Shown: positions 7,719 to 53,364, counted from the first letter of the stretch. The stretch is DNA of 64,000 nucleotides from Nemertoderma westbladi (GCA_032718475.1 JAUCBJ010000548.1:1-64000), one strand, 5' to 3'. Notes: generated by a model not told the origin, from the letters alone. Program-made: numbers and translations.

Positions 7719-7744
7719 TACGTTTCGAGACTGGGGGGGGGTCA

Positions 7745-12045: not shown

Positions 12046-12853
12046 TGCTTTTGGAATAACACCCCTTTCTTCTTTAAAGGTGCGGTTTGTAGTGGCCCGG
12101 GTATATGCCCTATGTCTAACTTTTCAACAGCTGTCTCACAAGACATTGGCATTATCACTTTCCAATCAAATTCATTCTCTATAATGGGAGTTGAATACTT
12201 AACGACTACTTTGTTTAATTCTGGCTTATCATATTGATCGATTGATATACTGTATCTGATCGAATAGCGGCCCACTTAACTTTTTCCCCCAATGAATCGT
12301 TATGATTTAGGGGGTAGAGTACAAGACTATCGTTCCAGTTCAATATATCTCGGTTAGATACTGGTATCGCTGTGTAGGGTTCTGGATTTAGTTTAGCATT
12401 GCTAATAATATGTAACCATTGTGATGGTACGTAAACGATCTTATTGTGAATCGACAGCTAAGTGTGACCAGGAATTACAAATTAATAACAGATGATGCAT
12501 CAACCTTTGAGCTATGCAAACGCAGACCAGCAACTAATAATAACATGCGATTTAATATCATTCAGCAGCCCTGGGAAATTATTGCTCAGATAAAAGTAAA
12601 AAGAATTAATTTTAAAATCAAATAATTATTATCTTTACATATGTTTTACATATCTTTACATTCATTATATGTGGAGATGATGTATGAATTGCGTGATGGG
12701 GTGCTTTATGTGTATTTATAATACTAAATGAATTGTTATTGTTAGGGTTTTTTTTGTTTAGAATTAATACATACAATTATTGCCAGTTTTAAAACCTAAC
12801 GGTTCAACTGTTTAACGTGGTTTCATATTTTAATGTTTCTTTAAATTTTAATC

Positions 12854-14505: not shown

Positions 14506-14728
14506 TAGCTATGAATTGGTTACTAGGCAATAATACTACATTTTGTATAGTTAGGCCTATTGCTGACCGAACGAAAACTGCCCTGGTTCATGCGAGGATC
14601 GAACCCACAACCTACTGGAGATGTGAATTCAAAGCAACCACTACACCAAGGTGGAACAGTAACGTTCGAATTTGTTCATTAACGTTCGAATTTGTAAGAC
14701 TCTGATTTAAGACCTCAGCCACAGCCTC
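14506..14728. repeat. Outer part of left arm of long inverted repeat (continues 33605-34027 after the BEL insertion)
   Basis: Reverse complement of 35385-35600. Confidence 0.9.
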
Positions 14729-15938
14729 TGTAAAAGCTTTTGCGGATATAATCAGTCCCCCTGCCCGCAAAGTACCGTTGTAGGTGTTTTAACGGACATA
14801 AAAGTCATTCTTCTATATGTGTGCTTTGGCGGACATGGTAAGGCACAAAACCCGCAATGCGTCAAATTCTCTAGCACAGTGTAGCCTTGATGATTCAGAT
14901 TACGACATCTAACAGCTGGTTGCTGGCATGGAAACGGCCGTTGGACACATGGTTCTTTGTTTCAGCTTAACAGCCAATCAGAGCGATTTTTACTGTCGAT
15001 GTGGAGATATTCTACAGATCGTGCTATCAGTATTCAGTCTTATAGTTTTCTGGTTTATAGTTTTGTTGTTTTTTCTATCTAGGCCAAGAACACCGGCTCT
15101 AGAGTCAATTCGTTTCAGACTTTAGAAGAAACATTAGTAGGCTTAGATTATAGAGCGTATAACTGTTACCGGCCCAATTATCAGCGCAGTAGCGCAGCGG
15201 TACAATCTTATATTGTTATAATCTTAACCTACCGTCTTAATGCTTTTTACTGTTGTTATTGTTTCTATCTAGTTGGTTGAATATTATTATTTGGAGAACA
15301 TCTATAAAGATCCCAAATTTCCCAATTTTCTTGATACACTACAGGTTAGAGAGACAGGTTACATATAGCGATTGCGACTTATATTATCGTGGTTTGTAGT
15401 GAGTTTAATGCTATTTGATAGGCACTACATGAGTCAATTGCTGTTCTCTTTATATATGATAAAATTCATTGACGGTCGGCAGATTAGTGTGCAGTATTGT
15501 GTGGTACCGGTAGTGTGCATGATTGTGGCTGCTAACTAAGCATTTCCTAAAGAATGCGCCTCATACGTGAATCATAAGCCTTACAGTCTTACAGTTGTGT
15601 TTAGTATAAGTCATATCTCTGTTTACCTAGATAGAGCGCCACGTCCTAAAGGAACTGTTAATATTTCCCGAAAGTGAATAATACTCGTCAGAAATTATTT
15701 ATTAACGATCAATCGAATAATACAGTAAGCTTACACTGCAATAATAAAATCTAAGCCCCATCCGAATCCAGTCTCCCGGGTATATCCAGCGGGTGAATGG
15801 ACGCGCACTAGGCTGGCTTCGGCTAATGTTGTGTTTATTGGTATTAAATACTTGTCATTTACTAAAGTCTATTTATAAACCAAAAGACATATAAATTTTG
15901 GCAGGTTAAACTGCTAAAGGTCTTCAAAAGCGCGTACA
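14729..15938 (+). repeat. BEL1 5' LTR
   Basis: TGTAAAAGC...GCGCGTACA, a direct repeat of 32390-33599. Confidence 0.97.
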
Positions 15939-16001
15939 GTAACAGTTATTTTCTTTATTGCAGTAAGCAATAAAGTTGAAAGTACCGGTCGACCGGTAAA
16001 C

Positions 16002-16318
16002 CTGAACCGGTACTGCTGTAGGTCCGTAGGCCCAACTGCCAGAATCGGTACTGCTGTAGGTCCGTAGGCCCAACTGCCAGAATCAGTACTGCTGTAGGTC
16101 CGTAGGCCCAACTGCCAGAACCGGTACTGCTGTAGGTCCGTAGGCCCAACTGCCAGAATCGGTACTGCTGTAGGTCCGTAGGCCCAACTGCCAGAATCGG
16201 TACTGCTGTAGGTCCGTAGGCCCAACTGCCAGAATCGGTACTGCTGTAGGTCCGTAGGCCTAACTGCCTGAACCGGTACTGCTGTAGGTCTGTAGGCCCA
16301 ACTGTCCTAACCGGTACT
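16002..16318 (+). repeat. 38-bp tandem repeat, about 8 copies, in BEL1 leader
   Basis: Unit GGTACTGCTGTAGGTCCGTAGGCCCAACTGCCAGAATC; the TACT core recurs at 16011, 16049, 16087, 16125, 16163, 16201, 16239, 16277 and 16315. Confidence 0.95.
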
Positions 16319-16489
16319 TCCAGTATAAGTACATTAGTATTATTCGATTTTGATTATTGTATACCGGTAGGTCTCGATATTAAATCGGGGACGCCTGGTT
16401 TTTATTGGGATTTTACTTAGGTCTATTTCTGTCGGTTTTATTTCCTAGTAAGTTAATATTGAGCTGAAGACGTGTAAGTCTGCTCAGAT

Positions 16490-17070
16490 TGTTCAGATAA
16501 TTGTAGGCCGGACTGTTGTCGGATTGTTGTTGGGTCTGGAGAGATTGCGGCGTGTGTAGAGTTTGTCCGATAAAGTGCCAGTTAGTAAGTTGGGGCAGCC
16601 AGAGCTGTAAGGTCAATCCCCTCTTAAAGAATAAGTCGTACTACCGTGTTAGAACGCATACTAACTAACCATTTTGGAATCTGCATATACTGTAGTTTAT
16701 TTAGGCTTGACAGTAGTCTGCCAGCATTTTGGCCTGTGTTTGTTTGTGTGGTCTGTTCAGGTACCGTAATAGTTATTACTCAGATATTTGTAGGCTGGAT
16801 TGTTGTCTAGCTATTATTAGGTCTGAAGAGATTGCTGCGTGTGTAGAGTTTGTCTGATAAAGTTCCAGTTAGTAAATTGGGGCAGCCAGAGCTGTAAGGT
16901 CAATCCCCTCTTAAAGAATAAGTCGTACTACCGTGTTAGAACGCATACTAACTAACCATTTTGGAATCTGCACATACTGTAGTTTATTTAGGCTTGATGG
17001 TAGTCTGCCAGCGTTTGGTTTGTATTTTGTTTGAGTATTCTGTACGGGTAGCGTAATATTTATTATTCAG
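16490..17070 (+). repeat. 287-bp tandem duplication in BEL1 leader
   Basis: AGAGCTGTAAGGTCAATCCCCTC at 16601 and 16888, with flanking identity. Confidence 0.9.
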
Positions 17071-18370
17071 AGTTTATGCGATTATTCGCAACATTCATGT
17101 TGCGAATAAGCCCCAAGTTTATTCCTACAGTAATTGTGCTTGTTACACATACCGTTATAGTTAAATTAACCCCGGTACTACACGGGCTGCTTGGCGTAGG
17201 TAAAGACTGGTGACTTTGTGCTCCGGTCACTCCAGCAGATGCCGTGGTTCTTTTAACTGTTCAAGTATATTTAACTGCTAGTTATCTGTTTTAATAAGTA
17301 CTTGTACCTAATTTAGGGTTTGGTGTACAGTGCTTTCTGAAAGTAATTAGTGTGTAGGCAGTGTATTGTGTTGTAAAGTGGTTAATAGGCACGTTGGATC
17401 TGGTAGTCCGCGGTAATTAACTTCTAGGTAGGAACACTCCGTGATACATAACGTAGTACCTATAGCGATACGGCTATAGGTCGTCAGGTGGTGGTATTTT
17501 CCTATCTGGACAGCGCAATATATATTTACTACTACTTATTATTTTCAAATACCGTAGTACCCTGTCCGTTGTAATAACCAGAATTCTAACCCTTTGTTAG
17601 GCTGGTTTGTAGACTTCCTGTAAAATTACCCTAAAATTTCATACGTAATATTTTGTTGTGTTTTAATTAGAGAATTAATCTCACCCGTATCGTAAGTAAT
17701 TTGTAGTATTAAGTAACTTAGGTAAATTAGAATTATTTGTTTTAGTGTCCAATAAGTAGCACTTCACTGAGAGCGCACAGCTTCTGTGTAGTGACTCCCC
17801 CCAGAAATAATAACATTTATTTAAAATATTGACAAAACCCATTTAAACGGGTATATATATATTATAAATCAACTCAAACGATTTATAAATAGTAGGCCTG
17901 CCATACAACAACTAGGTCTCAATATCAGTTGGACTACTGCTTAAATAACGGTAATAAAGTAAGTTAAAGTAACTAAGTAACCTTTAAAATTCAGAAATTC
18001 AATTATTTAAATAATTGATATACCAGTATTCACGATAGGCCTATTATCTTTATTTCTATAAATTTAGGCTGAAATTATACCGGTATTCTGTAATTAATTC
18101 TAGTCCAGAATTATACTTATATACTATAAGTGTAGGCTGTATACCGGTATTCACGATAGGCCTATTGTATATTTATATATATTTGTGTTAAAATTATATA
18201 CCGGTATTCTGAGACAAACCTAGTTTACAATACTTATATATATTATAAGTGTATACCGGTATTCTAATCTACTGTAATAAATTACCGGTACTAGGCCAAC
18301 GGTCATACTGAATTACTAGACTCGCTTTAACTGTAACTATAGCAGTAAGCATTCAACTGTATAGATAAAC

Positions 18371-21300
18371 ATGTCTGACACCCAGCAAAACCTGTCAGAC
18401 AGTCTAATCGATACAACCATCTGTGACACAGATAGGAGTGTGGAGCGATTAATAAAGGGGTTCAGCTCACCTCCTACTGAAAGAAAGGTCATCCCTCCAG
18501 TAGTAGTATCAGACCCTAGGCTAATCCAACACCGTAGGTCTATCATCGGCACTCAGGCCCAAGTCAAACGGAACCAGGAAGCAGCTGTCCAACAACAGCA
18601 ACATCCTAGTCAAGAAACTTGTTCCCAGCGACCCGATAGCTCCAGTAGTTCGGATACTGTAGAGCTGACCCCCGAACGCGGAGTGCAGATGGCGGTTACA
18701 GCCTACTCGGATCCCCTTCTCACCCTTCCTGCCGCAGTGCTAACTACTATATTGATTGCGGTGGAGGAACACCAAGTCGATTGGGCGAGAAGTAAGCGAG
18801 CGACCCAAGATAGTTATGCGGGATACGCCAGGGAAGAATTGATGTCTATTGTCGAGTCACAATGGAACTTTCCCGGACCCGGACTCCTGTTAGATTTGTC
18901 CGAAGCTACTTGGGAAGACATACACAGGATGGGAGTGACTAAAGATACGATGGATCCAGCTGTTTGGAAGAGGTCGGCAGCAGGATATGTGCAGGGATTC
19001 TTCGGCTCCTTAGAGCGATTAGAAGAACAACTGTTTCGACAACCCCAAGGACCTCAAGAGCAGGAAGAGCTGCTTTATCAAGTACGCGAAAGAACCCTAC
19101 GCATTAGACTAATCCTATCAGCCTTTGAGGAAACTTCTAAAAGAAGACAGGACACGTCGCTGCAGGTTGCAGTCAAGACTTGGTTCCAGCGGGTAGGTCT
19201 CAAAGTTCAAGAAACGGCCCAGTGGAAATCCCAGCTGGCTGAGAGACCAACCTATGAAGAATCAACCGATGCCACTTTCTCTCAAGTGGAAAGCGAAGTG
19301 ACAGCAGAGAGACCGCGAACGAGAGACGCCATCGACATCTATCTGTCAGACTATCAACGTTTTTTAGGTGATGAAGAGTTGAGGAGACGACTGGCTGGAC
19401 TTCGCCCCAATAGTGAAGGAGCCAAGCTTGTGTTGGACTCAATCGATGCGGAAATGTGGGCTGCAAACAAAGCTAAATTTGATGAAAAGCTCCACCTCGC
19501 TAGAGTCCAAGAAGAACAAGTAAAGAAAAAACGTATAGAGGACAGAAAGGCAGTAGCAGCGGCAAAGGCGGCAGCGACAGTGGAAGAGGCAAAGGCGGCA
19601 GCGGCAGTGGAAGAGGCAAAAGCGGCAGTGGAAGCAGCAAAAGCAGCAGCAGCAATGGCATTGGCAGAAGCAGAACAGAGAGCGTCAGAAGAGACCACCC
19701 AACTGGAGTTGGAAAATCTTCAAGAGACGCAAGACTGCATAAATAAACAGTTAACTGCTAGTCAAATGCAGATGATGAGTCAATCTACTCCCAAGCGCCA
19801 AGGATACACATCATCGGAGGAAAGCGAGACCACCGATCCTGAAGGCGGAGGAAATAGATCTCGTCTAAGCAGGCGTAGAAAAACATCTCACCGTCACAAA
19901 TTGCCTGATTTGCCCCCAGCGGTTAGAAGACAACTAGCTAGCACAGACTTAGGTAGTACAGAACCCACAGACCAAATTATTCAGGTCAAAAGACTCCCTA
20001 CAATAGTTGATGAGCCTGAAATAATTAGGCCTGTCGTTCCCAAAGCCACTCCTGTACTAGAGACCCCTGTACTTCCAGAGCTTAACTCTAAATTCCCTTT
20101 ACACAGTACTACACTGCCTGTACCCGGTAGAACAGTCCATGAGAAAATCCCTGTCCTGGACGCTGAGAGAGAAATCAAAGATTTGTCTCCCGTCGTCCCG
20201 CGTCGGCCCGCTACAATGTTGGCGACTCCCGCTTCGGCGGTCGAGTGGGTAGAGGAGGGACGGCGGGGGATGAATCTCCTGCTCGGACAGATGCAGGAGA
20301 CTGTCCATCAACTTAAGGGAACAGTAAGGGAAAGTAGGGCAGAATTGCAAGAAGTGCAGCAAAGTATCGCGCTAGAACGTGACAAATTAGTCAATATACA
20401 AAAGGGTATACCAATACCCCCAGTAACATTGTGTCAACCTGTTAGGTCTGAAGTATCACATGCGCAAGGTGTGGAGCCTACACGCATCTATACTGCTAGT
20501 GAAGTAGAAACTCCTATAGCAAACCCTATTAAGGGTGATTATAAACCTGTTGTTAATGATATTCCCTATAGACCTGATAATGATCCGAGAAATTTATATA
20601 CCGATAATTCGATATTAAATAACACGATGGCCCAAGAAAGCTTTACGTGTCAGATGGCTAGAACAGAAGCCCGCCAAGCGGTCAAAGTGGGAGAGATCGT
20701 CAAATTCAATGGAGATGAGATGAAATGGTTACCTTTCAATGAATATTGCAAAGATAGCATACAGAACTCTGTACTATCTAACGGAGAGAAACTTAGATTC
20801 CTCATCAAGTGCTTGGAAGGACCTCCCAAGTTAATGGCGTCAAAGTTCATTGGACATCCAGATGGATTAAGACAAGTTTGGGATACATTAAACATCAGGT
20901 ATGGTAACAAGGATAACATAGCTAAGTATTTGTATGCAAAATTAGAAGCCCCCCGAAACTTCCTTAGTAGCGGGATTATAGAGTTTTCCGATGAGATTCA
21001 GGAGATCTGTAGACAATTGGACTGGTTAGGTAAGTCTCATGAATATCAGAGTTCCATGGTTATTGGAGCCGTAGTCTCTACTTTACCAAAGGGTGGAGTA
21101 TGTACACGCTGGGATAAGAAAGTGTTGTATATGAATGAGCAGCAACGACGAAGCCCTACCATGGCTGATCTCATGTCCTTCTTAGATGGTGAAGTAAAAC
21201 TACAACTCATCATGCAGTCCAGAGAGAAAACATCGGAAAATAAGGTAAGTGAGAAACCCATTTCTAGGAGAAGAGTAACACCAGTGTGTTACACTGACGA

Positions 21301-24300
21301 CGGCGAAAGCCAAGCTTCTCAAGAAGAGGACAGTGGAAAAGACACTGATAGATTTTACTACGTTAACAAAACCTCAAAAGACGTAAGTAAATACAAGGCT
21401 CGAACCAACGATAGGAGAGAACAGGTTGCCAAGACTCCTCCTCAGTCTCCTAACAGAATGCACGGAAGAAAGACCGAAGAAAGAACGAGAGTGCATCAAG
21501 TTACCCAAGGTAAAGTGAGTAACATCAAACCAAACTGTGCGCTATGCGATGGGCCCCACCGTTTGAGTGCGTGTGCTGAATTTCTAAAGAAATCCCTTGT
21601 AGACAGACGTGCAGTCATGTGGGATAAGCGGTTATGCTATAATTGCCTCAGATCAGGACACCAACGGCGAACCTGTTACTCCGACGTAAAGTGTGCAAAG
21701 TGTGGCGCGAAACATCACATCTTGTTACACAGTGAGTTCGAACGAGACAACCCGAGTCAGGTAAGTGAGCCCGAACTACATGTCCAATTCAGTGATGTAA
21801 ATGACACTGATCAAGAGTCTGAGATGGAAGGATTCTATACTGACGAATTCTCTGACGCCAACGAATCCTGTTACTTAATAAATACCGCAGTGTATCGAGC
21901 ACTTACTTACGAAAAGGACACCGACAATGAGTTTCCCCCAACTACTTTTGCCAGACAACCATCTTGGAAAGCTCCAACTTCCAACGTAGGAATCAGAGAA
22001 TTTCCTGTAGTGCAGGTAAGAGTTCACGGTCCTAACAAAAGTTACATAGTGAACGCCCTCCTTGACTCCGGCAGCACAGGAACATTCATCGACCAAGAAC
22101 TAGCCGAAGATATCTTTGCTGGACAACCCAAATTCCGGACTAAATTGAATATGTCAGGAATTATGCAGGTTTGGAAATCTACCCTAACGGCAGATTACTA
22201 TGTAGGTGTGTTGTCCACCCCCCAGGATAAATTAGGAGCACAAGGTATAAGGTCGGTAAAAATGGTGGCTATAAAGAACTTCGCTACTACCCAAGCAGAT
22301 CTTTATAATTGGGACGAGGATGAGAGCATCCAACAGCTTAAGATACCTCGATTCCAGACAGATTATCCTGGAGTGCAAATACTCATCGGCCAAAACGCGC
22401 ATGAGGCGCTCGAGACATTGGAGAAACGGCCTGCTCAACCGCAGCCACTGCAAACCTATGCGGTAAGAACTAGAGTAGGTTGGTACTTTACTGGCCCTTC
22501 CCGCAGAACTCTCGAAGAGAGAATGCCACAAGAACGAATATACCAAGTAAACGATTGGGAAGTGGAGAGCAGTGAGGTGGAAGAACTAACTGAGGGAACA
22601 CCATACTCCTCAGATAATGACGACATATACCAACTCTTCGATGAAGAGAACACAATCGACCTACTTACAGAAAACAAAACGTGGAAAAACCAGGTGAACC
22701 TATGTCAACTGATTCGCCCATCGGGACCCATTGATTACAATGACGAACTAAATGATGAGATAGAGCGCTACAACGATAGAACTCGGGACGAACTCGCCGT
22801 ACGATTCTTTACTCAAGAATTGGTAGAGCCCAATTCATACGATAAGGCCCTATCGATAGAGGAAGAAAGAGCCAAGCAAATCCAGGAAACAACTATCCGT
22901 TTTTTAAAAGATCAAGGTAGATATGAAATCGGCCTACCATTTCGAAAACGAGAACCTAGATTTATAAATAACAGACCCTTGGCAGAGAAAAGAATCACTC
23001 AATTACATCGACGCCTTACGGCTAACGCTTCAGCTAAAGAAATGTACCAAACTCAGTTGAAGAAATTTATTACAAAGGGATACGCGGAGCGAGTACCGGA
23101 AGGAACACCAGTGACTGAGAGAACGTATTACTTAACACATCATTACGTTCCCAAACCCGGTAAACCCCATGAAGTACGAGTCGTATTCGATGGCTCCGCT
23201 CTATATATGGGCCAATCCCTCAATTCCGAGTTGTTACCAGGACCCAACTTACTCCAATCCTTGTTGGGAATACTTTTAAGATTAAGACAATATTCCATCG
23301 CGTTCGCCTCCGATATAGAAGGAATGTTCTTACAAGTCAAGGCGCTGGATAGAGATAGAGACAGCCTGAGATTTTTGTGGTGGCCTGAAGGAGATCTCAA
23401 CCAGAAACCGGTAGAGTACTGGATGACCATCCAGGCTTTTGGGATCATATCAAGCCCTTCCAACGCCTGCTCCGTGGTGCGGACCACTGCGAATGACAAC
23501 CGAGACGCCTTCTCAAAAGAGGTGATAGACAACATCAAGCGTAATATATACATGGACGACAATTTAAGGTCCCTTCCATCAGTAGAAGAAGCCATTGATG
23601 TCGCGAAAGGAACGGTAGAGTGTTTGAAAAGAGGTGGATTTCGACTGACGAAATTCACCAGCAACTCCCGTGAGTTTCTGGAAGCGATACCGGTAGAAGA
23701 CCGAGGAACGAAAGATCTAGACTTAATAAAGGACAATCTTCCAGAAACCAAGACGCTTGGCTTGAAGTGGGACACCGAAAGAGATATCCTGTTTTTTCAG
23801 CTAAAACAGCGAGATAATCCAGTTCGGACCAAACGGATTTGTTTAAGTATCCTGAGCACTTATTTCGACCCATTGTGATTTATTAGCCCAGTTATATTGA
23901 TTGCTCGGAGTTTAGTACAACAAATGTGGCTTGAAAACCACTCATGGGACGATCCACTTAAGGGAGAACTGTTAAAGAAATGGATGAAATGGGAAGATTC
24001 TCTACCTGCCATCGAGAGCTTTGTAATTTCCCGTGCATATTTTGGTCATGTTCTTCCTACGTATTCCTATCAACTCCGTGTTTGGAGACGCCAGCGACAT
24101 GGGAATAGGTATAGTAGCATATCTGCGAGTCGAAACTCCTGATGGAATCAAAGTCGCCTTGGTTACCTCTAAGGCATTGATTAACGACAAGTTAAAGGTT
24201 CCTCGAGCAGAGTTAAAAGCGGCTTTATACGCTACAGCCATCGGCCGGAACGTAACAGAACAAATCGACTATCCACTGGAGAAAACTGTTTATTGGACCG

Positions 24301-26432
24301 ACGCTTTACTCGTGTTGGAGTATATAACCAATGAAGTCTGTCAGTTCAGCGTTTTTGTTACTAACAGGGTAGCTATTATTCTTAGTCGCACAAAGATAGA
24401 TCAATGGAGACATTGCCCTGGTACGATTAATCCAGCTGATATCGCCTCCAGGGGAGCAACCCCACAGGAACTGATAGATACTCCAGACTGGTTGGGTGGA
24501 CCCGACTTCCTGAGTAAGGAAGAGGATGAATGGCCTCCTCACCTTACTACGGCGGAGATTAGACAAGCCAAGGGAGCGGAGAAAGTCAAACCTAAAACCC
24601 GGGCGAGTAAATCGAAGTTATTTAAACCGACGATCGATCTATCTGTATTGCATACTTCCGGAAACGATGCTTCGGATCCACAATCCCTCGCCACAAATAA
24701 GTCTGTTGTGGAAATTAGAGATAGAGATTGGAAATCTGGAACACCAGACGTCTCGCAAGGAATCTCACCCCTGCTGCAGAGAGCAATGCATCACTACAGT
24801 TCCTGGAATCGGCTTTGTAAAGCCGTCACATATTTAAGGCGATGTTTTCATCATCACTACTCCAGGACGAAGACCATTAGTGATACCGCTCCATTGACAT
24901 CTGCGCAAGTTCATGTTATTAAAAATTTACCCAAATATAAGACATCCGACCGGTTTCTAAAGGAAAAAATCAGTTACAAGGAGCATGAAGAAACCAATAA
25001 GCAGATACTGAGACTCCTGCAATGCTATGAGGATTCCGATAAGTATTTCCTGTTGTTGAGAAATCCGCAGATGCGCTTAAGGGATCGCTTCTCTAGCACA
25101 ATGATAGATGGGTTAATACGTGTTGGAGGAAGGCTCACCAATGCGCCATTATCCTTTGACACTAAATTCCCCATACTCATTAGAAATCTTGAAGTACAAA
25201 TCAAGATGATTGTAGATGTTCACAGTAAACTTTATCATGCTGGTAGAGAACGAGTTCTTAGCGAAATTCGAACTCGCTATTATTTTGATAAACCCCGTAG
25301 AGCTCTGAACCAAGTTCTTAGGAACTGCATACCCTGTAGGAAAGCATTCAGTAGGCCTTTAACACAGCGAGAGGCAGAATTACCTAGGGAACGAGTAAGC
25401 TTCTATGAACCACCTTTTACCAATACTGGTGTAGATTTATTTGGCCCCATTGAAGTATATCGTGCTAGGACTATAGTCAAGAGATGGTGTGTCATCTTCG
25501 TATGCATGACTTGTAGAGCCATCCATCTCGATATGGTGAACGATCTATCTACCAACAGCTTCGTCTTAAGTTTACGCCGACAGATCGCTCGCTTCGGGAC
25601 AAGTAATACCATGAGATCGGATAAGGGAACGAACTTCATTGGTGCCAACAACGAAATCCAGGCTTACGTGAAGGACTGGAACCAAAGACAGGTGGACGAT
25701 CAGCTAAGGATAACAGCGTCTAGCTGGACCTTCAACGCCGCCGACGCCCCTTGGTGGGGAGGAAGTTGGGAGAGATTAATTAGAAGTGTCAAGACCGCAT
25801 TTCACTTTATAGTGCCATGCCGCGCGTATCTCACCGACGAACTTTTGCGGACATTAATGGAGGAAATAGCTGCCTATCTCAACGAGAGACCGCTTATGCC
25901 AGTCTCATCGAGTCCCGATTCCCTGGAAGCGCTAACACCCGCGCACTTCCTACTGAAGAAACCTGTAGCCATGCTCCCACGATCGGAGATTGCCGACGGA
26001 GACGAATACTGCCGTCGAACTTGGCAACTTATGCAGTTGCTATCCCGTCGTTTTGCTGACCATTTCGAGAAACATTATCTGCCCACGCTACAACTTCGAA
26101 CTAAGTGGTTTGCGCAGCAAGAAAACGTCAGCGCCGGATCTATGGTGCTTATTGTAGATTCAGACCTCCCACGTAAACGGTGGCAGACAGGTCGTATCAT
26201 CGAGACTCACATCTCGAATGATGGTTTAGTACGCTCGGTAGAACTCGTCGTCATGCGGCGTAACTTCAAGAAGCCAGGCATAATCTTTGAGATGCAACAA
26301 CTCAACCGCCCAGTTGGTCGTTTATGTTTACTGGAAAGAGACAGAGAACTCTCCGGAAACTATGGAAGGCAAGACACTCTTCCCACGACCACCTCCCTAA
26401 TTCCTCAAACATCTAGGGACTCCCCAACGTGA
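18371..26432 (+). pseudogene. gag-pol: BEL1 gag-pol polyprotein, broken by one nonsense codon and one frameshift
   Basis: Three knuckles (CALCDGPHRLSAC, CYNCLRSGHQRRTC, CAKCGAKHHILLH), ALLDSGS protease, SDIEGMFLQV/YMDD RT, FGDAS/PRAEL/WTD/NPAD RNase H and GVDLFGP/SDKGTNF/GGSWERL integrase. TGA at 23876-23878 (FDPL*, normally FDPLG) and a frameshift near 24077. Confidence 0.95.
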
Positions 26433-26974
26433 TACGTCTGGAGTGGGTGCATGACTATATTATTCTATCTATTTTTTATTATATTTTTATATGCGAACTT
26501 TATTATGTACTTTATTATAATCGTTTTTATTCAATTTTATTTAGTAGAAGGTTATTTTAGATTATTTGGTAGATTAGTGCAATATATTAGTGTTTATTAC
26601 GTAATTACATATAATATATATTTAGTGTGACGGCGAGAAATAATTCTTTTTCTCTTTCCTTACTGTCCGTATTATATTATAAACACGAGACTACAGTAAG
26701 ATGACATGTCAGTACTTATTAAAGTACAATAAAGCCACTACTATATTTAAGTATTATTGGTAGGCAGAGTATTAGGAATGCAAAGTTCAGATCCTCGTGT
26801 CTCGGCTAAACCAAGCTCTGGGTAGACCTTGGAAACGACTTGCCTCTTCACACTGACATTGCTTCGTGCGATATTGCTCTTCTACCTTATATTAAATAAT
26901 ACATATAGTAGCGTGATGTCCCTCTAACAGTAGCGTAAAACGCAAATAAATCTGTTAAACCTTTGACCATCTGT

Positions 26975-27245
26975 AATTCTAGTCGATTAAGATATCGCGG
27001 CACCCACCGATATACTTGAAAGACAAATTCTAGAATCAGTGGTTAACGTCCCCAGACAAGTTCTGGAATAAATCGGTGCCCATCTTAAATATTAATTTAA
27101 TATTTATTAAAATCTGTAAAATTCAGATCCTTTAAAATTTCTAGTCAATTAAGATATCGCAGCACTTACCGATACTCTTAAAAGACAATTTTATAGAATT
27201 AAGGATCCTAAGTCCCCAGACATGCTCTGGAATAAAAATTGTGTC
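26975..27245 (+). repeat. About 160-bp imperfect duplication in BEL1 pol-ORF2 spacer
   Basis: TTCTAGTC(G/A)ATTAAGATATCGC...GTCCCCAGACA...CTGGAATAAA occurs twice (about 26977 and 27139). Confidence 0.75.
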
Positions 27246-28057
27246 AATTTTAACATCAAATAATAAAATTCACGGGAATAAATTTAAATTCATATCTTGG
27301 ATGAATTTCATAAATTGTCATTTTGTGCAATTTATAACATTCCCAAAATTCCATTAATTAATAGATCATGGGAGTGGAGATTCATTCTTTTGAGTGTATT
27401 AGAGTGCGAGAATCTCCAACATATAGTCAATAGCCGATAAAAATTTAATAAAATCATGCATAGAGAGGATATTGACAATTAAAGAATTACTATTAAATAG
27501 CATTCCAGATCTGTATGCATGAGAATTACCCTAATTCTACCGCTAGCTTTCCATAATGTCACCATAGCAACACCCACGCTAGAATTAGAAGCAAGTTAAA
27601 AGAACAATAGAAAGCTTGTCCCATTGCCTAGCATAGAGAATGCATAGCATACTGTTAGTATCCAAGGATACACAGTAATAACGTGACATTCTGGAAGGCA
27701 CTGACTAACGGACAAATGGCCTGTATGTGTACAATTGGTGACAGTTGTGTGGAATTTGTGCGTTTATAGGTGAATGTTACTGCTAAAGTATGTTTACAGT
27801 AGCTAGTCGCAATTGTGAAAGTAACCCAACTCTCCTATAGAAAGAACCTAAAGTGGATCCAAGCCTTTGGGACGGACAGTGGAGTGACTTGTGCCGGTTA
27901 TCGTTGTCGTGCTGTTGCTACATGTTGGCGTAAACACCGCGACGACGGTACATCGGTGCTGAGAATCCCACTGTCCGGGGGCAACGAGAGGTAGGCAGCG
28001 ACGCCCGCTAGCCTAAACATAAACTCATTTTGATATTAATAAACTCAGATAGCAGAT

Positions 28058-31000
28058 ATGACGGAGTTGATAGAAGATGATCTTGGTATTAGGGAGCGAT
28101 ATACTCTACCTTTACAAGCATTTGTGGATAGCTTAATACGCGGTGAAGCCGATCCAACCATTACGGAGGACGATGGTCGTTATATCGAACCGCCGATGTC
28201 CCAAGAGCAACTTGCGCGTGAATTTGACTATCGAAAATTCACCGCTCGCTATACGAATCGTAATGGTACGTATATGGACTTCTTAACTACCGGCCATCCT
28301 ATCGATTTACATGATACGGACGATGTAGACACAGAAAGGGAAATGGTTCTATTTAAATATCATACCCAGCGGAGTCGTAACGATAAACCGAGAATAGAAC
28401 ACGAAAATTCTATTCGTAACAGACTGGAAAGAGAAAACGTTGAAGAACCGGATAAACGCATCGACTTCAACGACTACCTGGAATTTTTGAGAGAAACTTA
28501 TCTCAACATCGCCAGTCAGCAGAACCTAGAGACTCGATATCCTCAAGGTATACATCATGACCCTATGGTAGAACTTAAACGGCTCTATTTCACTATGATG
28601 TATCTTACAGCCGATCGTCCACTACCTGTTATCCCGGATAGTTTTGAACAAATGGAAGAATATTGCAAAACTGGAGAACGATCACCCGCATTTCCTCTAC
28701 AGGACGTACGTCTTTGGTATTATTGTGACGAATGCCCTAGACCCAACCAACAAACTGAAAGACATAAACATCCGCGGAGACGTTGCGCTAAACACAGCTT
28801 TACACGTTATACTTACAGGAGTTTCGAGCGAAACCTGTTCGACGTATCACCTACGATCGCTCGTCTTAAACGATCACTGAATAAACCCATGATCAGAGTT
28901 CCGGAATACTCGGTCAGGCCTCCTCATTCCCTAGTGAGACCTCAAACTCTTGATCCTAACAGTATCACTGATCCTCCCGAACTATATTCCCTGTTCAAAG
29001 ACTTAGTGTTACCCGAACAATTAATCGGTGGTGCTCCGGTAGTGGGTTCGTTAGACATTTGCCCATCCTACTTAGCCGGATTGGGACGCGGGCAGCTAAT
29101 ATCGCCATTTGATCCTTACAATCGTCCAGGATTAAACCCGATGCAACCCGCCACGGAAGTTGAGGAGAGCGTTATAAGAAATGCTTTAGACGCTATTCAA
29201 CAGAAGATCGGAAAGGGAACACAAGATTGTTTAGAGAAACGTAAATTACAACAACAAGTCCAATCGGTGAAGGAGTTAGCCTTGCCACAGTTCGATAGAG
29301 AAATCCAAAACCTCGAGGAGGACATCGAGCTTGGACGTACGTATTCTCTACAAGAGTTTTTAGATGAACGCTTACAGAGACAAGCGGAAGAAAATCTACT
29401 CGAGGAGAAACACACGAAAATGGACGAGAGAGAAGAAGCCACTTTAGCCCAACCTGAAGCTCAAATCCTTATGACAGATCTCTACTCTAAAACCGTCCGT
29501 CATCCCTCGATGATTCCACATTTCGGAGACAAACTCTTCGCGACAATACAACCTCAACCGGTTGATATCAGTACAGGATCGCAAAATCTTATCGCTGACG
29601 CCCCTATGTTACAGCGTCCGCCAATCGAGGCCGCTCGTGTTGACGGTATACTCGTTGAACCTCCGGACAATCGAGCGGATCTTGTCCGTCGTATGGTACA
29701 CGATGTCAACATACGCGCTAGACCTTTACAGAACTCGTTTTATGGGATTAAAGACCACCCTTATTACGTTAATCTGACTCAATATTATATGGTAAAACCA
29801 GAAGACCCGACGCATAATTTAAAGTTTCTACCACTAATAAATCCTCTAGACATTGTCGAACTCGAACAATTGCAGAAACATCTGGATCAGTTAGTAAAGG
29901 TAAACTCATTTAGAAAACCATATAACATTTCTCGAATCGAGAAGGATATAGAACCTCCTTATAATCTCGATGGATTTATTAAAACTCGATTAGTCCATTG
30001 GAATCTAGATGTATTATTTGAAGAAGAGAAAATACAAAGATATGGAAATGTGGAGACGTATACCACTCGGCACATGAAGTATAGTGATCTCCCTGATGCT
30101 AACCAATGCGCCACCTTGTGGCATCCAGTAGGGATGACCCTAGAGAACGCCACCAAGGAGTGGAATGAAACTCTTAATGTTATTGAGATGTATGGAGTTG
30201 TCACCTACGATAATGAAGGTAGCGTTCCGGTCGGAGAACTAGGAACTACGCGCATGATCCACATACGCGGATTAGCTGGTTCTACACACGTGTTTACTCG
30301 AGCGTGTTCCGACGTGATTGATTATTCCTTTGAAACTCTCACCGAAACACAAAAGAATCTCCGACATGGACAATTCGAACTCGCGCAGCGTTACGTCATT
30401 GACACCGAACGCAAACCGGCCATGGGTATCGATGGATCGATGTTACCCCAGCCCGTACTCGAGATGTTGTTCAACGAAAGAATCCTTAAAATCGGCTCAG
30501 CTGTTTATGGAGATCTCCAAAACGACTTTCGGAATATGGAGAACATTCCATACCCTTTCGTTGATACTCAGCTGATTGCTCCCTGGGCAGAAGGTCGAGG
30601 TTTCTTCCGCACCATGTATGCTAATACGTCTAGCAACATTACAAAGGTGCAACGAACTTCCATCGGACATCTTGCCTTTCAGGAATACGGATGGAATTTC
30701 AAAGTCGGAAATCCCATCAACTATCAACAAGTATACGGAGACCATTATTCTCGATTATACTTTGATGGACCATTGACCGCACCTGGCGCCGTGTATAGCT
30801 TCATGAGTGTTCCACTCCGTCCCTCCTTAGCTATCTACACGATCTTTGAAAACACCGCACGTTCCGGTTGGCTAGCCGATGTGTGCAGTCGTACTATACA
30901 CGCCCATCCATTAATACTTGGGACCAAACTCGCTAAGCTAGATGAACATAATAAATTCATCCGCTTCGAATGTTTCCGGCGATTTTTAACCCCATTCCGC

Positions 31001-32311
31001 AACGTGGATAGCCAATTTAAAGACCGCGCTTTGACCAAGCTCAGCCTAAGAAACTCAGCTGCAGAGAAGTTAGATAGCGCTGGATTTGCCATTTTCAAGG
31101 AGATTTGTATGTCGAACTTACACTCCTCTGTTATACAAAGACCTCGAATCCCCACAGGTTATTCTGTCGTGGAAATTCAGACAATAGGTCCACTTGAAGA
31201 GACAGACACGCCCACCTCAGCTATGCACTGGGAAGACGAACCAATATGCCTAGAATCTGAGGAGATTCAGCCTATCGCCCCCCGGAACAGCGACAACGAT
31301 TACATCCTAGAATGGTATCAAGGTCCACAGTGTCTCACTGCGTACGATTATCGACATGCCAACTATGTTTCTCGGCAACGTTGTCGGTTATGCGCATCGA
31401 GAGACCATGTTACGCCCATGGACACAAACGTCCGCTGTTCCTATTTCCAAGAACAACCGACGATGGAAATTTATTGCGCATATTGCAGACTCAATAACTT
31501 GCATATTTTTGCGGTTTGCCCTCAATTTATGACTCAATGTCACCATTGTCAACTAAAGGGACACGCCAGTTTCGATTGCCCTTTTAATCACGATTTGGAA
31601 AGCGTAGATGAAATGATCACACTACGTTACATCAGAGCTTGGGAAGCGAACGCTGATTTACATTGTGATTCGCGCCATCGATATTATCCTGGACGCGCTT
31701 ACGAAGGAGTTTATGCGTTCCATCCTTATCTATTCGCTTCTGTCGAACAGAAATCACGCATATTGAGTTACGAACTACTGAAGCGCGTCGGAGAATGTAT
31801 TTCAACCAAATTCGTACGCAAATTTCTCAGGAGTGTTAATCCTAGCGACCTTCATTCCTATAACTTAATCAATTATATCCGTCAGGATCCGGACTATGGA
31901 GACTTATTTGTTAACTCACACCCCAAGTTACAGGAAGTATATCGACGGCCTTACGAATACCAAGCCCGCGAACGCGAGTTGGAAAGAACCATTAAACCCA
32001 GGAGGTTTCTGACTGCCTATGGTCCACCCACGGCTCTCGTTCAGACCACTCGTAAAGGACCCGTAAGAGCGGCTGTCCTAAAACGCGCTCTCAAGGCCGT
32101 TAGACCCCTCTCCCCCGACGTTGATGTCAATCAACCCGGCACTTCGACTGGCGGATACACCGACCATAATCCTACACCCTCTGATGCAATCATATTGCAC
32201 CCTTCACCCAGGAGTTATAGCCCTCCTTGTAAAGTGGCTCGCCCCAAAGAGAAAAGGACTCTGGCCAGCTTTAAAAAACTGCGTAAACGCCGTCTGCGCA
32301 AGAAAGACTAA
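28058..32311 (+). CDS. BEL1 accessory ORF2: DEDDy-like 3'-5' exonuclease domain plus three zinc knuckles, 1417 aa, intact
   Basis: ExoI VVTYDNEG, LPQPVLEMLFNERILKIGSAVYGD (ExoII), FVDTQ and YTIFE (ExoIII-like); CRLC..H..C, CAYC..H..C, CHHCQLKGHASFDC; basic C-terminus. It lies inside the LTRs. Confidence 0.8.
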   Translation: MTELIEDDLGIRERYTLPLQAFVDSLIRGEADPTITEDDGRYIEPPMSQEQLAREFDYRKFTARYTNRNGTYMDFLTTGHPIDLHDTDDVDTEREMVLFKYHTQRSRNDKPRIEHENSIRNRLERENVEEPDKRIDFNDYLEFLRETYLNIASQQNLETRYPQGIHHDPMVELKRLYFTMMYLTADRPLPVIPDSFEQMEEYCKTGERSPAFPLQDVRLWYYCDECPRPNQQTERHKHPRRRCAKHSFTRYTYRSFERNLFDVSPTIARLKRSLNKPMIRVPEYSVRPPHSLVRPQTLDPNSITDPPELYSLFKDLVLPEQLIGGAPVVGSLDICPSYLAGLGRGQLISPFDPYNRPGLNPMQPATEVEESVIRNALDAIQQKIGKGTQDCLEKRKLQQQVQSVKELALPQFDREIQNLEEDIELGRTYSLQEFLDERLQRQAEENLLEEKHTKMDEREEATLAQPEAQILMTDLYSKTVRHPSMIPHFGDKLFATIQPQPVDISTGSQNLIADAPMLQRPPIEAARVDGILVEPPDNRADLVRRMVHDVNIRARPLQNSFYGIKDHPYYVNLTQYYMVKPEDPTHNLKFLPLINPLDIVELEQLQKHLDQLVKVNSFRKPYNISRIEKDIEPPYNLDGFIKTRLVHWNLDVLFEEEKIQRYGNVETYTTRHMKYSDLPDANQCATLWHPVGMTLENATKEWNETLNVIEMYGVVTYDNEGSVPVGELGTTRMIHIRGLAGSTHVFTRACSDVIDYSFETLTETQKNLRHGQFELAQRYVIDTERKPAMGIDGSMLPQPVLEMLFNERILKIGSAVYGDLQNDFRNMENIPYPFVDTQLIAPWAEGRGFFRTMYANTSSNITKVQRTSIGHLAFQEYGWNFKVGNPINYQQVYGDHYSRLYFDGPLTAPGAVYSFMSVPLRPSLAIYTIFENTARSGWLADVCSRTIHAHPLILGTKLAKLDEHNKFIRFECFRRFLTPFRNVDSQFKDRALTKLSLRNSAAEKLDSAGFAIFKEICMSNLHSSVIQRPRIPTGYSVVEIQTIGPLEETDTPTSAMHWEDEPICLESEEIQPIAPRNSDNDYILEWYQGPQCLTAYDYRHANYVSRQRCRLCASRDHVTPMDTNVRCSYFQEQPTMEIYCAYCRLNNLHIFAVCPQFMTQCHHCQLKGHASFDCPFNHDLESVDEMITLRYIRAWEANADLHCDSRHRYYPGRAYEGVYAFHPYLFASVEQKSRILSYELLKRVGECISTKFVRKFLRSVNPSDLHSYNLINYIRQDPDYGDLFVNSHPKLQEVYRRPYEYQARERELERTIKPRRFLTAYGPPTALVQTTRKGPVRAAVLKRALKAVRPLSPDVDVNQPGTSTGGYTDHNPTPSDAIILHPSPRSYSPPCKVARPKEKRTLASFKKLRKRRLRKKD

Positions 32312-32389
32312 CTGTTTAGAGTATTTACGTATATTAGAAACTGTGATTTTTGTATATTTATAGACTTGAATCCCATTTTCTGGGAGCGG

Positions 32390-33599
32390 TGTAAAAGCTT
32401 TTGCGGATATAATCAGCCCCCCTGCCCGCAAAGTACCGTTGTAGGTGTTTTAACGGACATAAAAGTCATTCTTCTATATGTGTGCTTTGGCGGACATGGT
32501 AAGGCACAAAACCCGCAATGCGTCAAATTCTCTAGCACAGTGTAGCCTTGATGATTCAGATTACGACATCTAACAGCTGGTTGCTGGCATGGAAACGGCC
32601 GTTGGACACATGGTTCTTTGTTTCAGCTTAACAGCCAATCAGAGCGATTTTTACTGTTGATGTGGAGATATTCTACAGATCGTGCTAGCAGTATTCAGTC
32701 TTATAGTTTTCTGGGTTATAGTTTTGTTGTTTTTTCTATCTAGGCCAAGAGCACCGGCTCTAGAGTCAATTCGTTTCAGACTTTAGAAGAAACATTAGTA
32801 GGCTTAGATTATAGAGCGTATAACTGTTACCGGCCCAATTATCAGCGCAGTAGCGCAGCGGTACAATCTTATATTGTTATAATCTTAACCTACCGTCTTA
32901 ATGCTTTTTACTGTTGTTATTGTTTCTATCTAGTTGGTTGAATATTATTATTTGGAGAACATCTATAAAGAACCCAAATTTCCCAATTTTCTTGATACAC
33001 TACAGGTTAGAGAGACAGGTTACATATAGCGATTGCGACTTATATTATCGTGGTTTGTAGTGAGTTTAATGCTATTTGATAGGCACTACATGAGTCAATT
33101 GCTGTTCTCTTTATATATGATAAAATTCATTGACGGTCGGCAGATTAGTGTGCAGTATTGTGTGGTACCGGTAGTGTGCATGATTGTGGCTGCTAACTAA
33201 GCATTTCCTAAAGAATGCGCCTCATACGTGAATCATAAGCCTTACAGTCTTACAGTTGTGTTTAGTATAAGTCATATCTCTGTTTACCTAGATAGAGCGC
33301 CACGTCCTAAAGGAACTGTTAATATTTCCCGAAAGTGAATAATACTCGTCAGAAATTATTTATTAACGATCAATCGAATAATACAGTAAGCTTACACTGC
33401 AATAATAAAATCTAAGCCCCATCCGAATCCAGTCTCCCGGGTATATCCAGCGGGTGAATGGACGCGCACTAGGCTGGCTTCGGCTAATGTTGTGTTTATT
33501 GGTATTAAATACTTGTCATTTACTAAAGTCTATTTATAAACCAAAAGACATATAAATTTTGGCAGGTTAAACTGCTAAAGGTCTTCAAAAGCGCGTACA
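32390..33599 (+). repeat. BEL1 3' LTR
   Basis: Direct repeat of 14729-15938. Confidence 0.97.
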
Positions 33600-33876
33600 G
33601 CCTCAGCCACAGTCACAACCTCAGCCACAGCCTAGGCCACAGCCTCAGCCACAGCCTCACCCTCAGCCACTTCTCCAGCAGACCACTTCTCCCCACAGGA
33701 GAATATTTGTTTATCTGTTGTCAAAAAGTTTAACTAATTTGATGTTTTGGTTACCCATTCATTATGCATTTAAAATAGGATCAAGTTGACTTTATTTGTC
33801 TAATTAAACATATTATTATGAAATTACATAATTAATACGACTAAATATAATAAATATTTCAAACAATCAGTTATAA

Positions 33877-34620
33877 TTAATGTCTCGCATTAACTGTACG
33901 ACTGTTCATACGCCTTGGTCGATATACAACAGTTGCTGGAGATATAACTTTTCCTTTCCCTACTCTGATTTTCTGTCCATTTTCATTGTCATTTTCCTCT
34001 GATTCTTCCTCACTGCCATCGCTACTCTCCTCTGCTTCTTCTACACTACCATCATTACTCTCATCCGATTCATCCTCATAACTCTCATTTCCATCATTAT
34101 CACTCTCCTTATGCGAATGTTTCTGCATTTCATTCAATTGTCTAATTATTTTCTGAAGTTTATTTTTATTTCCTATTACATGTCTTAATATCTCCTCATT
34201 ATCTGAGTCATTCTCCTCCTCACTTTCGTGTTCCTCGACTTCTTTCTCGCTCTCATTTTCTTCATCACCACTCTCATTTTCTTCTTCCTCTATCTCACTC
34301 TCTGTTTCATCATTCTCACTTTCCTCTGATTTATCATCTTCCTCACTTTCATCATCCTTTTCACTAGGTGGCTGCTTCTGTATATTTTTCAAAATATTCA
34401 TTATTTTCTCGAATTTATGTTCCATCATTTGTTTAATCTCTAGAAAGTCACTCTCAACTCTCTTTTTGTTCTCATCTTCACTAAAAATATCATCATTATT
34501 TTTTAATTTTTTTGGAGAAGGTTCCATTTCACCTTCCTTTCTATGTATACTCATATGGCGGGATATACTGTCTCGTCTCATTTCTTTATCACAAACCATG
34601 CACTTTTCATAACTAGACAT
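33877..34620 (-). CDS. Small protein with N-terminal C2H2-like zinc finger and long acidic tract
   Basis: 247-aa open frame in AT-rich DNA; CMVCDKEMRRDSISRHMSIH, NLS-like PSPKKLK, E/D/S-rich region. Confidence 0.55.
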   Translation of the reverse strand: MSSYEKCMVCDKEMRRDSISRHMSIHRKEGEMEPSPKKLKNNDDIFSEDENKKRVESDFLEIKQMMEHKFEKIMNILKNIQKQPPSEKDDESEEDDKSEESENDETESEIEEEENESGDEENESEKEVEEHESEEENDSDNEEILRHVIGNKNKLQKIIRQLNEMQKHSHKESDNDGNESYEDESDESNDGSVEEAEESSDGSEEESEENDNENGQKIRVGKGKVISPATVVYRPRRMNSRTVNARH

Positions 34621-34914
34621 TTTATGAAAGAAAACTGTATTATGTTTTTAAATGTCTACAGCTATATTTTTTCAAAATTTTCAGTTTGTTTAGCTAGGGA
34701 TTGATTCACTTACAAATATAATTATCAGTAAATATATATCAGAAGATGGAACATTATTAATAGAGTTCAAATTTAATGTTTAAAGATTAATGTTAATAAT
34801 TGAAATTTATATATGGGAGGCTATCGCTTATTAAGTGAGGTTTGTGTATGGTATAGTGAGGCACAAAGTTAGGCATACAATACATACACTCCCAGTACAT
34901 ACATACACTCCCAG

Positions 34915-35600
34915 TAGCGATGGCAGTGAGGAAGAATCAGAACAGAATGACAATGAAAATGTAGAGAAAATCAGAGTAGGGAATGGAAAAGTTATATCTC
35001 CAGCAACTGTTGTATATCGACCTAGGCGTATGAATAGTCGTACAGTTAATGCGAGACATTAATTATAACTGATTGTTTGAAATATTTATTATATTTAGTC
35101 GTATTAATTATGTAATTTCATAATAATAAGTTTAATTAGACAAATAAAGTCAACTTGATCCTATTTTAAATGCATAATGAATGGGTAACCAAAACATCAA
35201 ATTAGTTAAAATATTTGACAACAGATAAACAATTATTCTCCTGTGGGGAGAAGTGGTGTGCTGGAGAAGTGGCTGAGGGTGAGGCTGTGGCTGTGGCTGT
35301 GGCTGTGGCTGTGGCTGTGGCTGTGGCTGTGGCTGCGGCTGAGGCTGTGGCTGTGGCTGAGGCTGTGGCTGAGGCTGTGGGGGTGCCTCAGGTCTTAAAT
35401 CAGAGTCTTACAAATTCGAACGTTAACGAACAAATTCGAACATTACTGTTCCACCTTGGTGTAGTGGTTGCTTTGAATTCACATCTCCAGTAGGTCGTGG
35501 GTTCGATCCTCGCATGGACCAGGGCAGTTTTCGTTCCGGTCAGCAATAGGCCTAACTATACAAAATGTAGTATTATTGCCTAGTAACCAATTCATAGCTA
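34915..35600. repeat. Right arm of long inverted repeat, including (TGTGGC/TGAGGC)n microsatellite and tRNA-like segment
   Basis: Reverse complement of 14506-14728 plus 33605-34027. It re-encodes the ORF C-terminus KVISPATVVYRPRRMNSRTVNARH. Confidence 0.9.
35452..35525 (+). mobile_element. tRNA-derived Pol III promoter/SINE head (mirror copy at about 14580-14655, - strand)
   Basis: A box TGGTGTAGTGG and B box GGTTCGATCC at tRNA-like spacing; no intact cloverleaf. Confidence 0.65.
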
Positions 35601-44131: not shown

Positions 44132-44671
44132 TGTTAGCTTATTCAATTCCGCTAACACAAACCCATAAAGTCAACCGTTAAGCAATATTGGGGGCCACGA
44201 GATTGGGTAACCAACAACTCGTGTCACCCCAACAAAGTGGGAAGGAGAAACACACAATAAGGGTCAGGGGCCAAACCCCTAACCGAGAGAGAATAGGTGG
44301 AGTGAACGGAAACACTCCAAAGGGCGCCAATAGGGACCTTAGCCAATCAGAGGGGGGAAAGGCATCGGTTAGGTACAGTAACAAGGCCAACCCGTGCAAT
44401 ATAACCAGTTGGCAGTAATCATCTCATTCAGTTATCTCAGTGTTATTGGTGTTACAGTAGCAATAGTTTAGCTAGGGAAGTACCGGGATTTCAATTACCG
44501 TTTCCCGCCTTCCGCGTACAACAATATATTACCAGCCATTATCTATATCTATACTATATATCCCGAATATTATATACGACGAACAACGCAAACTCTTTTA
44601 TCTTTCACACACGGCGGGGACGCATGAATTGACAACCGGATAAACCGGGATCCTTCCTGGATCCCGTCACA
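44132..44671 (+). repeat. BEL2 5' LTR (two CCAAT boxes, TATA-like AATATAA about 44398, Inr-like TCATTC/TCAGTT about 44424)
   Basis: Direct repeat of 57807-58347. Confidence 0.97.
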
Positions 44672-44768
44672 GTAATTTAAACCTAGCAGCTACCCTGACA
44701 GTAATTGAATCAGAGCTGCCGCCCTAGTTGAACTCAGTGACTACCAGCCACCAATCTATTGAAGAGAG

Positions 44769-53253: not shown

Positions 53254-53364
53254 GGTGGAGTTAGAGTGTAGTTTAGTCGTCCAAGTTTGGACTGAGGGGG
53301 GTGGGATTGAGGGCGAGACGCCCTTCCCACACATAAAAAATGAAAAATAAAATAAATAAAAATT

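Follow-up and report, generated by a model that had tools for sequence, protein, structure and literature searches.

An exonuclease-like zinc-knuckle gene in the env position of two distant BEL/Pao retrotransposons of Nemertoderma westbladi

What is the function of a 1417-amino-acid (aa) open reading frame (ORF) that lies between pol and the 3' long terminal repeat (LTR) of a BEL/Pao retrotransposon, in the place where env would sit? The question is raised by a 64,000-nucleotide (nt) stretch of Nemertoderma westbladi DNA (GCA_032718475.1 JAUCBJ010000548.1:1-64000; hereafter the window, with coordinates counted from its first letter), in which a first-pass annotation read this ORF as an intact exonuclease and zinc-knuckle gene. 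The ORF, here called ORF3 (28058 to 32311, plus strand; protein P0001), is a real, conserved accessory gene that combines a DEDDy-like nuclease with zinc knuckles in the env slot and occurs in at least two distant BEL/Pao families.

The position and integrity attributed to ORF3 hold: it is a sense ORF between the integrase ORF of its host (element 1), which ends at 26432, and the 3' LTR, which starts at 32390. At the given base composition, a stop-free run of this length has a chance probability of about 10^-34. The protein consists of a ~680-aa N-terminal part, a DEDDy-like domain, an acidic linker, three knuckles, and a basic tail. Within the predicted RNase D/WRN-type 3'-5' exonuclease domain (30155 to 30862, plus strand; aa ~700 to 935; D718, E720, D819, Y927, and E931), every motif named by the first-pass annotation was recovered: YDNEG (with D718 at 30209), LPQPVLEML at 796, SAVYGD at 814 to 819, FVDTQ at 834, and YTIFE at 927 to 931. 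The fourth acidic position is occupied by glutamate (E931) instead of aspartate, and ~27 residues are inserted after the ExoI motif. The three CCHC-like knuckles are also present in tandem (31382 to 31579, plus strand; aa 1109 to 1174), the first irregular (CX2CX4HX9C, 1109 to 1127), the second of the form CX2CX5HX4C (1140 to 1154), and the third canonical (CX2CX4HX4C, 1161 to 1174); in a profile search they match Gag/nucleocapsid knuckles (best E = 0.0008). Lysine and arginine make up 9 of the 17 final residues, in keeping with the basic tail that had been described.

Despite its position, ORF3 is not env, since no hydrophobic segment exceeds a 19-residue hydropathy of 1.27. The N terminus is acidic, and neither a signal peptide nor a transmembrane (TM) segment is apparent, as the initial reading had it; a search of ORF3 for env traits (signal peptide, TM anchor, fusion-protein homology) found none of them. 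The N-terminal ~680 aa match nothing in Pfam, NCBIfam, PHROGs, or the rest of the window, and a PHROGs scan of ORF3 gave nothing significant. The cysteine/histidine cluster reported from this part does exist at aa 223 to 246, but the region is missing from both homologues described below, which therefore lend it no support. The cluster has the form C-x2-C ... H-x-H ... C-x2-H (28724 to 28795), and a charged helical stretch (aa ~365 to 465) lies in the same unmatched part.

A second version of the gene occurs in the same window. Element 2 (44132 to 58347, plus strand; 14.2 kb), flanked by the target site duplication (TSD) ATGTG, represents a separate BEL/Pao family whose reverse transcriptase (RT) region shares 118 of 333 residues (35%) with its counterpart in element 1. 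Its ORF3 (54523 to 57105, plus strand) follows the integrase and, across a stop at 55726 to 55728 and a frameshift near 54680, displays the exonuclease motifs in unchanged order upstream of three knuckles and a basic tail. When compared to P0001 by BLAST, the nuclease part is weakly similar (E = 0.016) and the knuckles more clearly so (E = 6e-6). The two nuclease domains are collinear at 24% identity, and the pair outscores shuffled sequences in 1988 of 2000 trials when gaps are standard, in all 2000 when they are loose, and in 1955 of 2000 when the alignment is global.

A profile of these two nuclease domains, searched against 1.8 billion representative proteins, returned two matches. The top one, P0002, was dropped as a false positive because this repetitive 2611-aa protein scores through nine repeats. 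The other, P0003 (E = 1.2e-4), is a 648-aa protein encoded on one 9449-bp contig; its pairwise E values are 5e-13 against P0001 and 4e-13 against the knuckle part of element 2, and it has the same succession of nuclease, linker, three knuckles, and basic tail without the first ~680 residues of P0001. In the three-way alignment, at 18 to 24% identity, the P0001 residues D718, E720, L796, P797, K811, G813, S814, D819, D836, Q838, Y927, and E931 are invariant. Because all three members keep the five active-site positions (D718, E720, D819, Y927, and E931) and the CCHC knuckles downstream of them, the exonuclease-knuckle cassette is old and conserved. The view of the cassette as a lineage feature is backed by the second family and the third homologue, with elements 1 and 2 as the two BEL/Pao carriers shown. 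Word-indexed homologue searches over a limited length range yielded 0 of 2573 candidates for aa 600 to 1300 of P0001, 0 of 783 for the domain alone, and, with a four-row alignment, 1 of 7988, which was P0003 itself. Locus searches for ORF3 relatives in viral contigs, metagenome contigs, phages, and plasmids found none.

To which family does the nuclease belong? The homology tests place it, very probably, among the RNase D/WRN-type DEDDy exonucleases (PF01612). A three-member ORF3 profile was run against 201 bacterial genomes at E <= 0.05, 61 of which were also scanned with PF01612. It matched 70 of the 201 genomes (best E = 4e-5). Of these matches, 22 were in genomes that the PF01612 scan also covered, and every one lay within a PF01612 domain; the ORF concerned was RNase D-sized in 21 cases and PolA-sized in one. 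Profile-profile comparison with 56 RNase D-like domains returned a probability of 94 to 96% and a score of 52.7, whereas the maximum in 200 column shuffles was 23.2 (0 of 200). With P0003 as the master sequence, the D-x-E aligns with the DTE of RNase D, the ExoII Asp with Asp, DTQ with DTQ, and Y-x3-E with Y-x3-D; this last correspondence falls in low-confidence columns, and Y-x3-E is present in all three members. Searches of the Atlas, which serve as leads only, placed PF01612 clusters in rows 2 and 3 for P0001 (score of 0.92; row 1 is without a family) and at 0.79 for the ORF3 of element 2.

Several results weigh against this assignment. Pfam scans produced no PF01612 match, and the best curated family, RNase D TIGR01388 (E = 0.0028), was far below its cut-off (17 bits versus 299). 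In a profile search of the PDB, RNase D (E = 0.11) and EXD2 (E = 0.24) were both outranked by a gp120 row. The profile-profile result is biased upward, since half of the loci from which the RNase D profile was built (30 of 60) entered it through ORF3-profile matches; its confident columns lie around ExoII, those at ExoI and ExoIII being of lower confidence; its probability is 67% with element 2 as the master row; and element 2 alone gives no score against the RNase D profile. The two AlphaFold models have predicted local distance difference test (pLDDT) values of 32 and 31 and are unusable. The DEDDy assignment of the first-pass annotation thus stands on homology, through the genome matches in PF01612 and the profile-profile comparison, but not on fold. 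That the domain is catalytically active is probable, although the replacement of Asp by Glu might reduce its activity or remove it altogether. Among the candidates set aside were the gp120 match itself, judged to be due to chance (E = 0.019 and weaker, 58 columns), and alignment A3, in which ExoI was misplaced; single-sequence PDB searches with ORF3 gave chance matches only.

Element 1 is a complete LTR element of 18.9 kb (14729 to 33599). DUF1759, Peptidase_A17, Integrase_H2C2, and DUF5641 all score over their Pfam cut-offs in both elements, which assigns element 1 to BEL/Pao; the placement of both elements is based on domain families. The 5' LTR (14729 to 15938, plus strand; 1210 bp, TG...CA) is preceded by the TSD GCCTC (14724 to 14728), which recurs at 33600 to 33604 after the 3' LTR (32390 to 33599, plus strand), and a short purine-rich tract (32382 to 32389, plus strand) precedes the latter. 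The 2.4-kb leader contains a 38-bp tandem array (16001 to 16342, plus strand) and a ~290-bp duplication (16493 to 16784 and 16780 to 17071), such that repeats span 16001 to 17071. A gag-protease-RT ORF (18371 to 23878, plus strand; DUF1759, with a weak Asp_protease_2) is closed after the RT by a premature in-frame stop (23876 to 23878), and the remainder of pol (24027 to 26432, plus strand; RNase H region, integrase, and DUF5641) is in a different frame, with a frameshift near 24080. A 1.6-kb non-coding spacer (26433 to 28057, plus strand), whose longest stop-free frame is 70 codons and which includes a pair of ~98-bp repeats, leads to ORF3, and AG dinucleotides just 5' of the ORF3 ATG may provide a splice acceptor. 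The element was inserted into a GCTGTG/CACAGC-type repeat. Directly to its right, a 429-bp inverted repeat (95%; 33598 to 35341) encloses an acidic 247-aa ORF on the minus strand (33877 to 34620) with a weak C2H2-like start.

The LTRs of element 2 (44132 to 44671 and 57807 to 58347, plus strand) are ~540 bp and 99.4% identical, despite which its gag, pol, and ORF3 carry several stops and frameshifts; the defects may predate an episode of copying in trans, or they may be assembly errors. Between its integrase and ORF3 is a strongly G-skewed array of short degenerate repeats (53366 to 54129), and its apparent insertion target is a non-LTR-type RT C-terminal fragment (58320 to 58931; weak DUF6451, below cut-off).

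With 6 differences between its 1210-bp LTRs (0.5%), element 1 is young. Over the time since insertion, ORF3 should have gained about 10 substitutions, and with a probability of ~0.68 none of these would be a nonsense change. The earlier observation that ORF3 is intact and pol broken is therefore true as a fact but uninformative about selection. The ORF3 stretch is present, whole or in part, in 6 of the 7 sequencing runs listed; none of these is labeled as RNA, although run X5 may be. Contigs cover 30 of 30 bins of element 1 in each of the four runs examined, and in two of these runs variant contigs number in the tens of thousands, indicating that ORF3 is part of a diversified, many-copy family. 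Two observations from this family count against the silencing role favored below. Some contigs bridge deletions of ORF3 aa 122 to 1057 (runs X4 and X5) or 452 to 1365 (run X1), and pol deletions occur likewise, such that forms without the nuclease exist as DNA; and among the ORF3 variants listed, 5 of 9 are synonymous versus 28% expected (P = 0.08), so that selection on ORF3 within the family is not demonstrated by them.

The primer-binding-site region is also atypical in these elements. A TGG was sought within 80 nt of the 5' LTR and is absent from both. At the primer-binding-site position of element 1, the first 11 nt past the 5' LTR (15939 to 15949, plus strand) pair with an exactly complementary 11-nt segment of the LTR (15159 to 15169, plus strand), a candidate self-primer. 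This match suggests that element 1 may prime itself, in a manner resembling Tf1-type self-priming (PMC4600332). Eleven Watson-Crick pairs are reached in 4 of 1000 dinucleotide shuffles (48 of 1000 when G:U pairs are allowed), and the pair probabilities are 0.47 to 1.0, assuming that the transcript begins there; TATA-like sites are located downstream of the 15159 to 15169 match. A second GTTAC follows the AG at 15357, and removal of a 193-nt GT-AG intron would produce the same 11-mer. No self-primer was found in element 2, where 287 of 1000 shuffles do as well as the best contiguous match and 231 of 300 as well as the best spliced one, and this weakens any fixed link between nuclease and priming. 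Element 2 starts with GTAA, not TGG, after its 5' LTR, and CAGTAATT is repeated 29 nt later (44672 to 44750). Scans of the whole window for tRNAs and Rfam families gave no matches.

The closest precedent is from bdelloid rotifers, as the first-pass annotation had noted. Juno and Vesta LTR elements and Athena/Terminon elements encode ORF3s of the RNase D-like DEDDy kind whose motif reads DEED (Rodriguez et al., PMC5408684, here and below as represented in excerpts of that paper), and the same cases are cited in portions of three reviews (PMC6431247, PMC5718144, and PMC6338049). These rotifer ORF3s share with the present one the env position, the RNase D-like character, the lack of TM or env features, and one catalytic Asp-to-Glu replacement. 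In contrast to them, the host here is BEL/Pao, and the excerpts of PMC5408684 name no BEL/Pao carrier; the motif, compared by description only, reads D-E-D-E here and DEED there; and the proteins here measure 650 to 1400 aa and have a basic tail after their three knuckles, whereas "CCHC" occurs 0 times in PMC5408684. Relative to cellular PF01612 proteins (E. coli RNase D, EXD2/WRN-exo, MUT-7/Nibbler, and Egalitarian), the ExoI D-x-E, ExoII D, D-T-Q, and ExoIII Tyr of ORF3 are in register with RNase D, but ORF3 falls below all curated cut-offs, has long insertions and an ExoIII of the form Y-x3-E, and no HRDC domain match was seen in it.

For the joining of nuclease and knuckles, the nearest counterpart is the Trypanosoma brucei RNase D (TbRND, PDB 7C42), which depends on its zinc-finger domain to bind RNA and to trim guide-RNA 3' ends efficiently (PMC7797062). 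In both proteins, tandem CCHC fingers come after an RNase D exonuclease domain, and TbRND acts on small-RNA 3' ends. Unlike ORF3, which is retroelement-borne and has three knuckles after an acidic linker of ~170 residues, TbRND is cellular, with four fingers and a preference for U, and the ORF3 profile matches its knuckle region weakly (E = 0.14); the likeness is an analogy only. Among retroelements, the International Committee on Taxonomy of Viruses (ICTV) profile of the Belpaoviridae lists gag, pol, and env only, a length of 4.2 to 10 kb, and an 18-nt tRNA-complementary primer site, these last two being typical traits and not the basis of classification (PMC8742986). Elements 1 and 2 agree with that family in gag-PR-RT-RH-IN (protease, RNase H, and integrase flanking the RT) order, Peptidase_A17, DUF1759, DUF5641, TG...CA LTRs of 0.2 to 1.2 kb, and a 5-bp TSD (PMC8742986; PMC3118150 in part), and differ from it in their lengths of 18.9 and 14.2 kb, in a third gene that is nuclease-knuckle and not env, and in having no tRNA-Arg/Gly primer site.

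What, then, might ORF3 do for its element? We tentatively favor the view that it is an accessory 3'-5' exoribonuclease that grips RNA with its knuckles and would weaken host small-RNA silencing of the element, a possible role proposed by analogy. ORF3 would be expressed from a separate, possibly spliced message. The RNase D-type domain would trim short single-stranded RNA from the 3' end by two-metal catalysis, with Glu in place of the ExoIII Asp, and the knuckles would act as the clamp, as in T. brucei RNase D. The proposed targets, and the least certain step, would be unmethylated precursors of PIWI-interacting RNAs (piRNAs) and small interfering RNAs (siRNAs). Small RNAs are trimmed by MUT-7/Nibbler and similar DEDDy enzymes, an attack that mature small RNAs withstand at their 2'-O-methylated ends. 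A silencing-RNA target is favored because of such MUT-7/Nibbler-type trimming and because an arenavirus exonuclease suppresses host immune signaling (PMC7968707). Taken as a whole, the broader picture of an old, previously undescribed branch of giant BEL/Pao elements that carry an active exoribonuclease-knuckle protein in place of env, destroy piRNA/siRNA precursors, and prime without a tRNA is doubtful; it would make the protein an enzyme by which an animal retrotransposon suppresses silencing.

The main rival is that the enzyme trims the element's own RNA, either the self-primer or the 3' end of the genomic RNA, to a paired end at which the RT starts without a tRNA. A tRNA-type primer site is missing from element 1, where the 11 nt after the 5' LTR pair exactly with 15159 to 15169 of the LTR, element 2 has no TGG, a 3'-5' exonuclease halting at a duplex would yield such a primer end, and 3'-end processing of element RNA was suggested by Rodriguez et al. 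(PMC5408684). The pairing test for element 1 was, however, post hoc, with TATA-like sites downstream of the match, and element 2 has neither a contiguous nor a spliced self-primer that we could find. The Tf1 primer, moreover, is made by RNase H alone, and we consider this account rather unlikely. Less likely are the readings in which ORF3 has lost its activity, acts on DNA, or contributes nothing. As a catalytically weak or dead RNA-binding scaffold, similar to EXD1 or Egalitarian, ORF3 would sequester silencing RNAs or chaperone the element RNA; all three members have Glu where Asp would be the fourth acidic residue, P0001 carries ~27 extra residues behind ExoI and a long N terminus of unrelated sequence, and inactive DEDD derivatives function in piRNA biogenesis (PMC5408684). 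Yet every one of the four acidic positions, and the Tyr, persists between proteins of only 18 to 24% identity, which is rare for a dead domain, and the bdelloid ORF3s, which also have a Glu variant (DEED), are read as possibly active (PMC5408684), leaving a scaffold improbable.

A DNA exonuclease that proofreads RT products or trims cDNA ends could aid the copying of an unusually long 19-kb genome, and the elements are indeed long (18.9 and 14.2 kb versus 4.2 to 10 kb for BEL/Pao; PMC8742986). An alignment with EXD2 (E = 0.24) takes in the LP..V..LL....K.G motif, the Atlas includes WRN-like clusters, and 1 of the 22 genome matches is in a PolA-sized ORF; however, 21 of the 22 checkable matches are RNase D-sized, none is a stand-alone PF01612 ORF of ~210 to 250 aa of the same genomes, and ORF3 is separate from pol, 1.6 kb downstream of it. 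Tandem knuckles usually indicate single-stranded RNA. Closeness to RNase D together with the knuckles favors an RNA substrate over proofreading, which we rate as more improbable than the scaffold. The least probable of these readings, and a very unlikely one, is that ORF3 is host or viral cargo captured at no benefit to the element. Selection within the family is not demonstrated, deleted copies occur, P0003 is known from the protein on one 9449-bp contig alone, and the bdelloid ORF3s looked neutral, with no clear departure from neutrality (PMC5408684), a point that also counts against the silencing role favored above. But the same layout occupies the same slot in two families at 35% RT identity, the active-site residues are kept at 18 to 24% identity, and a 4.2-kb passenger would not remain open across such divergence.

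The window contains features other than the two elements. A compact, GC-rich gypsy-type LTR element (3638 to 7923) has LTRs of ~186 bp, an open pol frame (4197 to 7718), and no third gene, as judged by eye from its translation. A 350-codon frame at 12845 to 13897 includes several His-rich motifs and resembles what we take to be a sterol desaturase or fatty-acid hydroxylase. A ~4.4-kb repeat is present in two copies ~51 kb apart (8239 to 12670 and 59611 to 64000) that are 82 to 94% identical.

The texts of PMC3118150, PMC13524379, and PMC9094657 do not use the word "exonuclease". In the open literature that we searched, no BEL/Pao element is described with an exonuclease ORF; subscription papers, supplements, Repbase, Dfam, or GyDB may hold such elements. 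The Caenorhabditis elegans element Cer13 may earlier have been reported with a 3'-5' exonuclease, for which the literature searched gave no support; if so, what is new here would be the joining to knuckles and the ExoIII Glu.

The gene bears on the question of whether enzymes directed against small-RNA silencing are encoded by animal retrotransposons. Exonuclease ORF3 cargo is now found in a second LTR superfamily, where it is conserved across families at 35% RT identity. Its RNA-binding module mirrors that of TbRND, a characterized small-RNA trimmer, and a defined fragment with five residues is available for direct assay. For the BEL/Pao elements themselves, the described size and gene content are widened.

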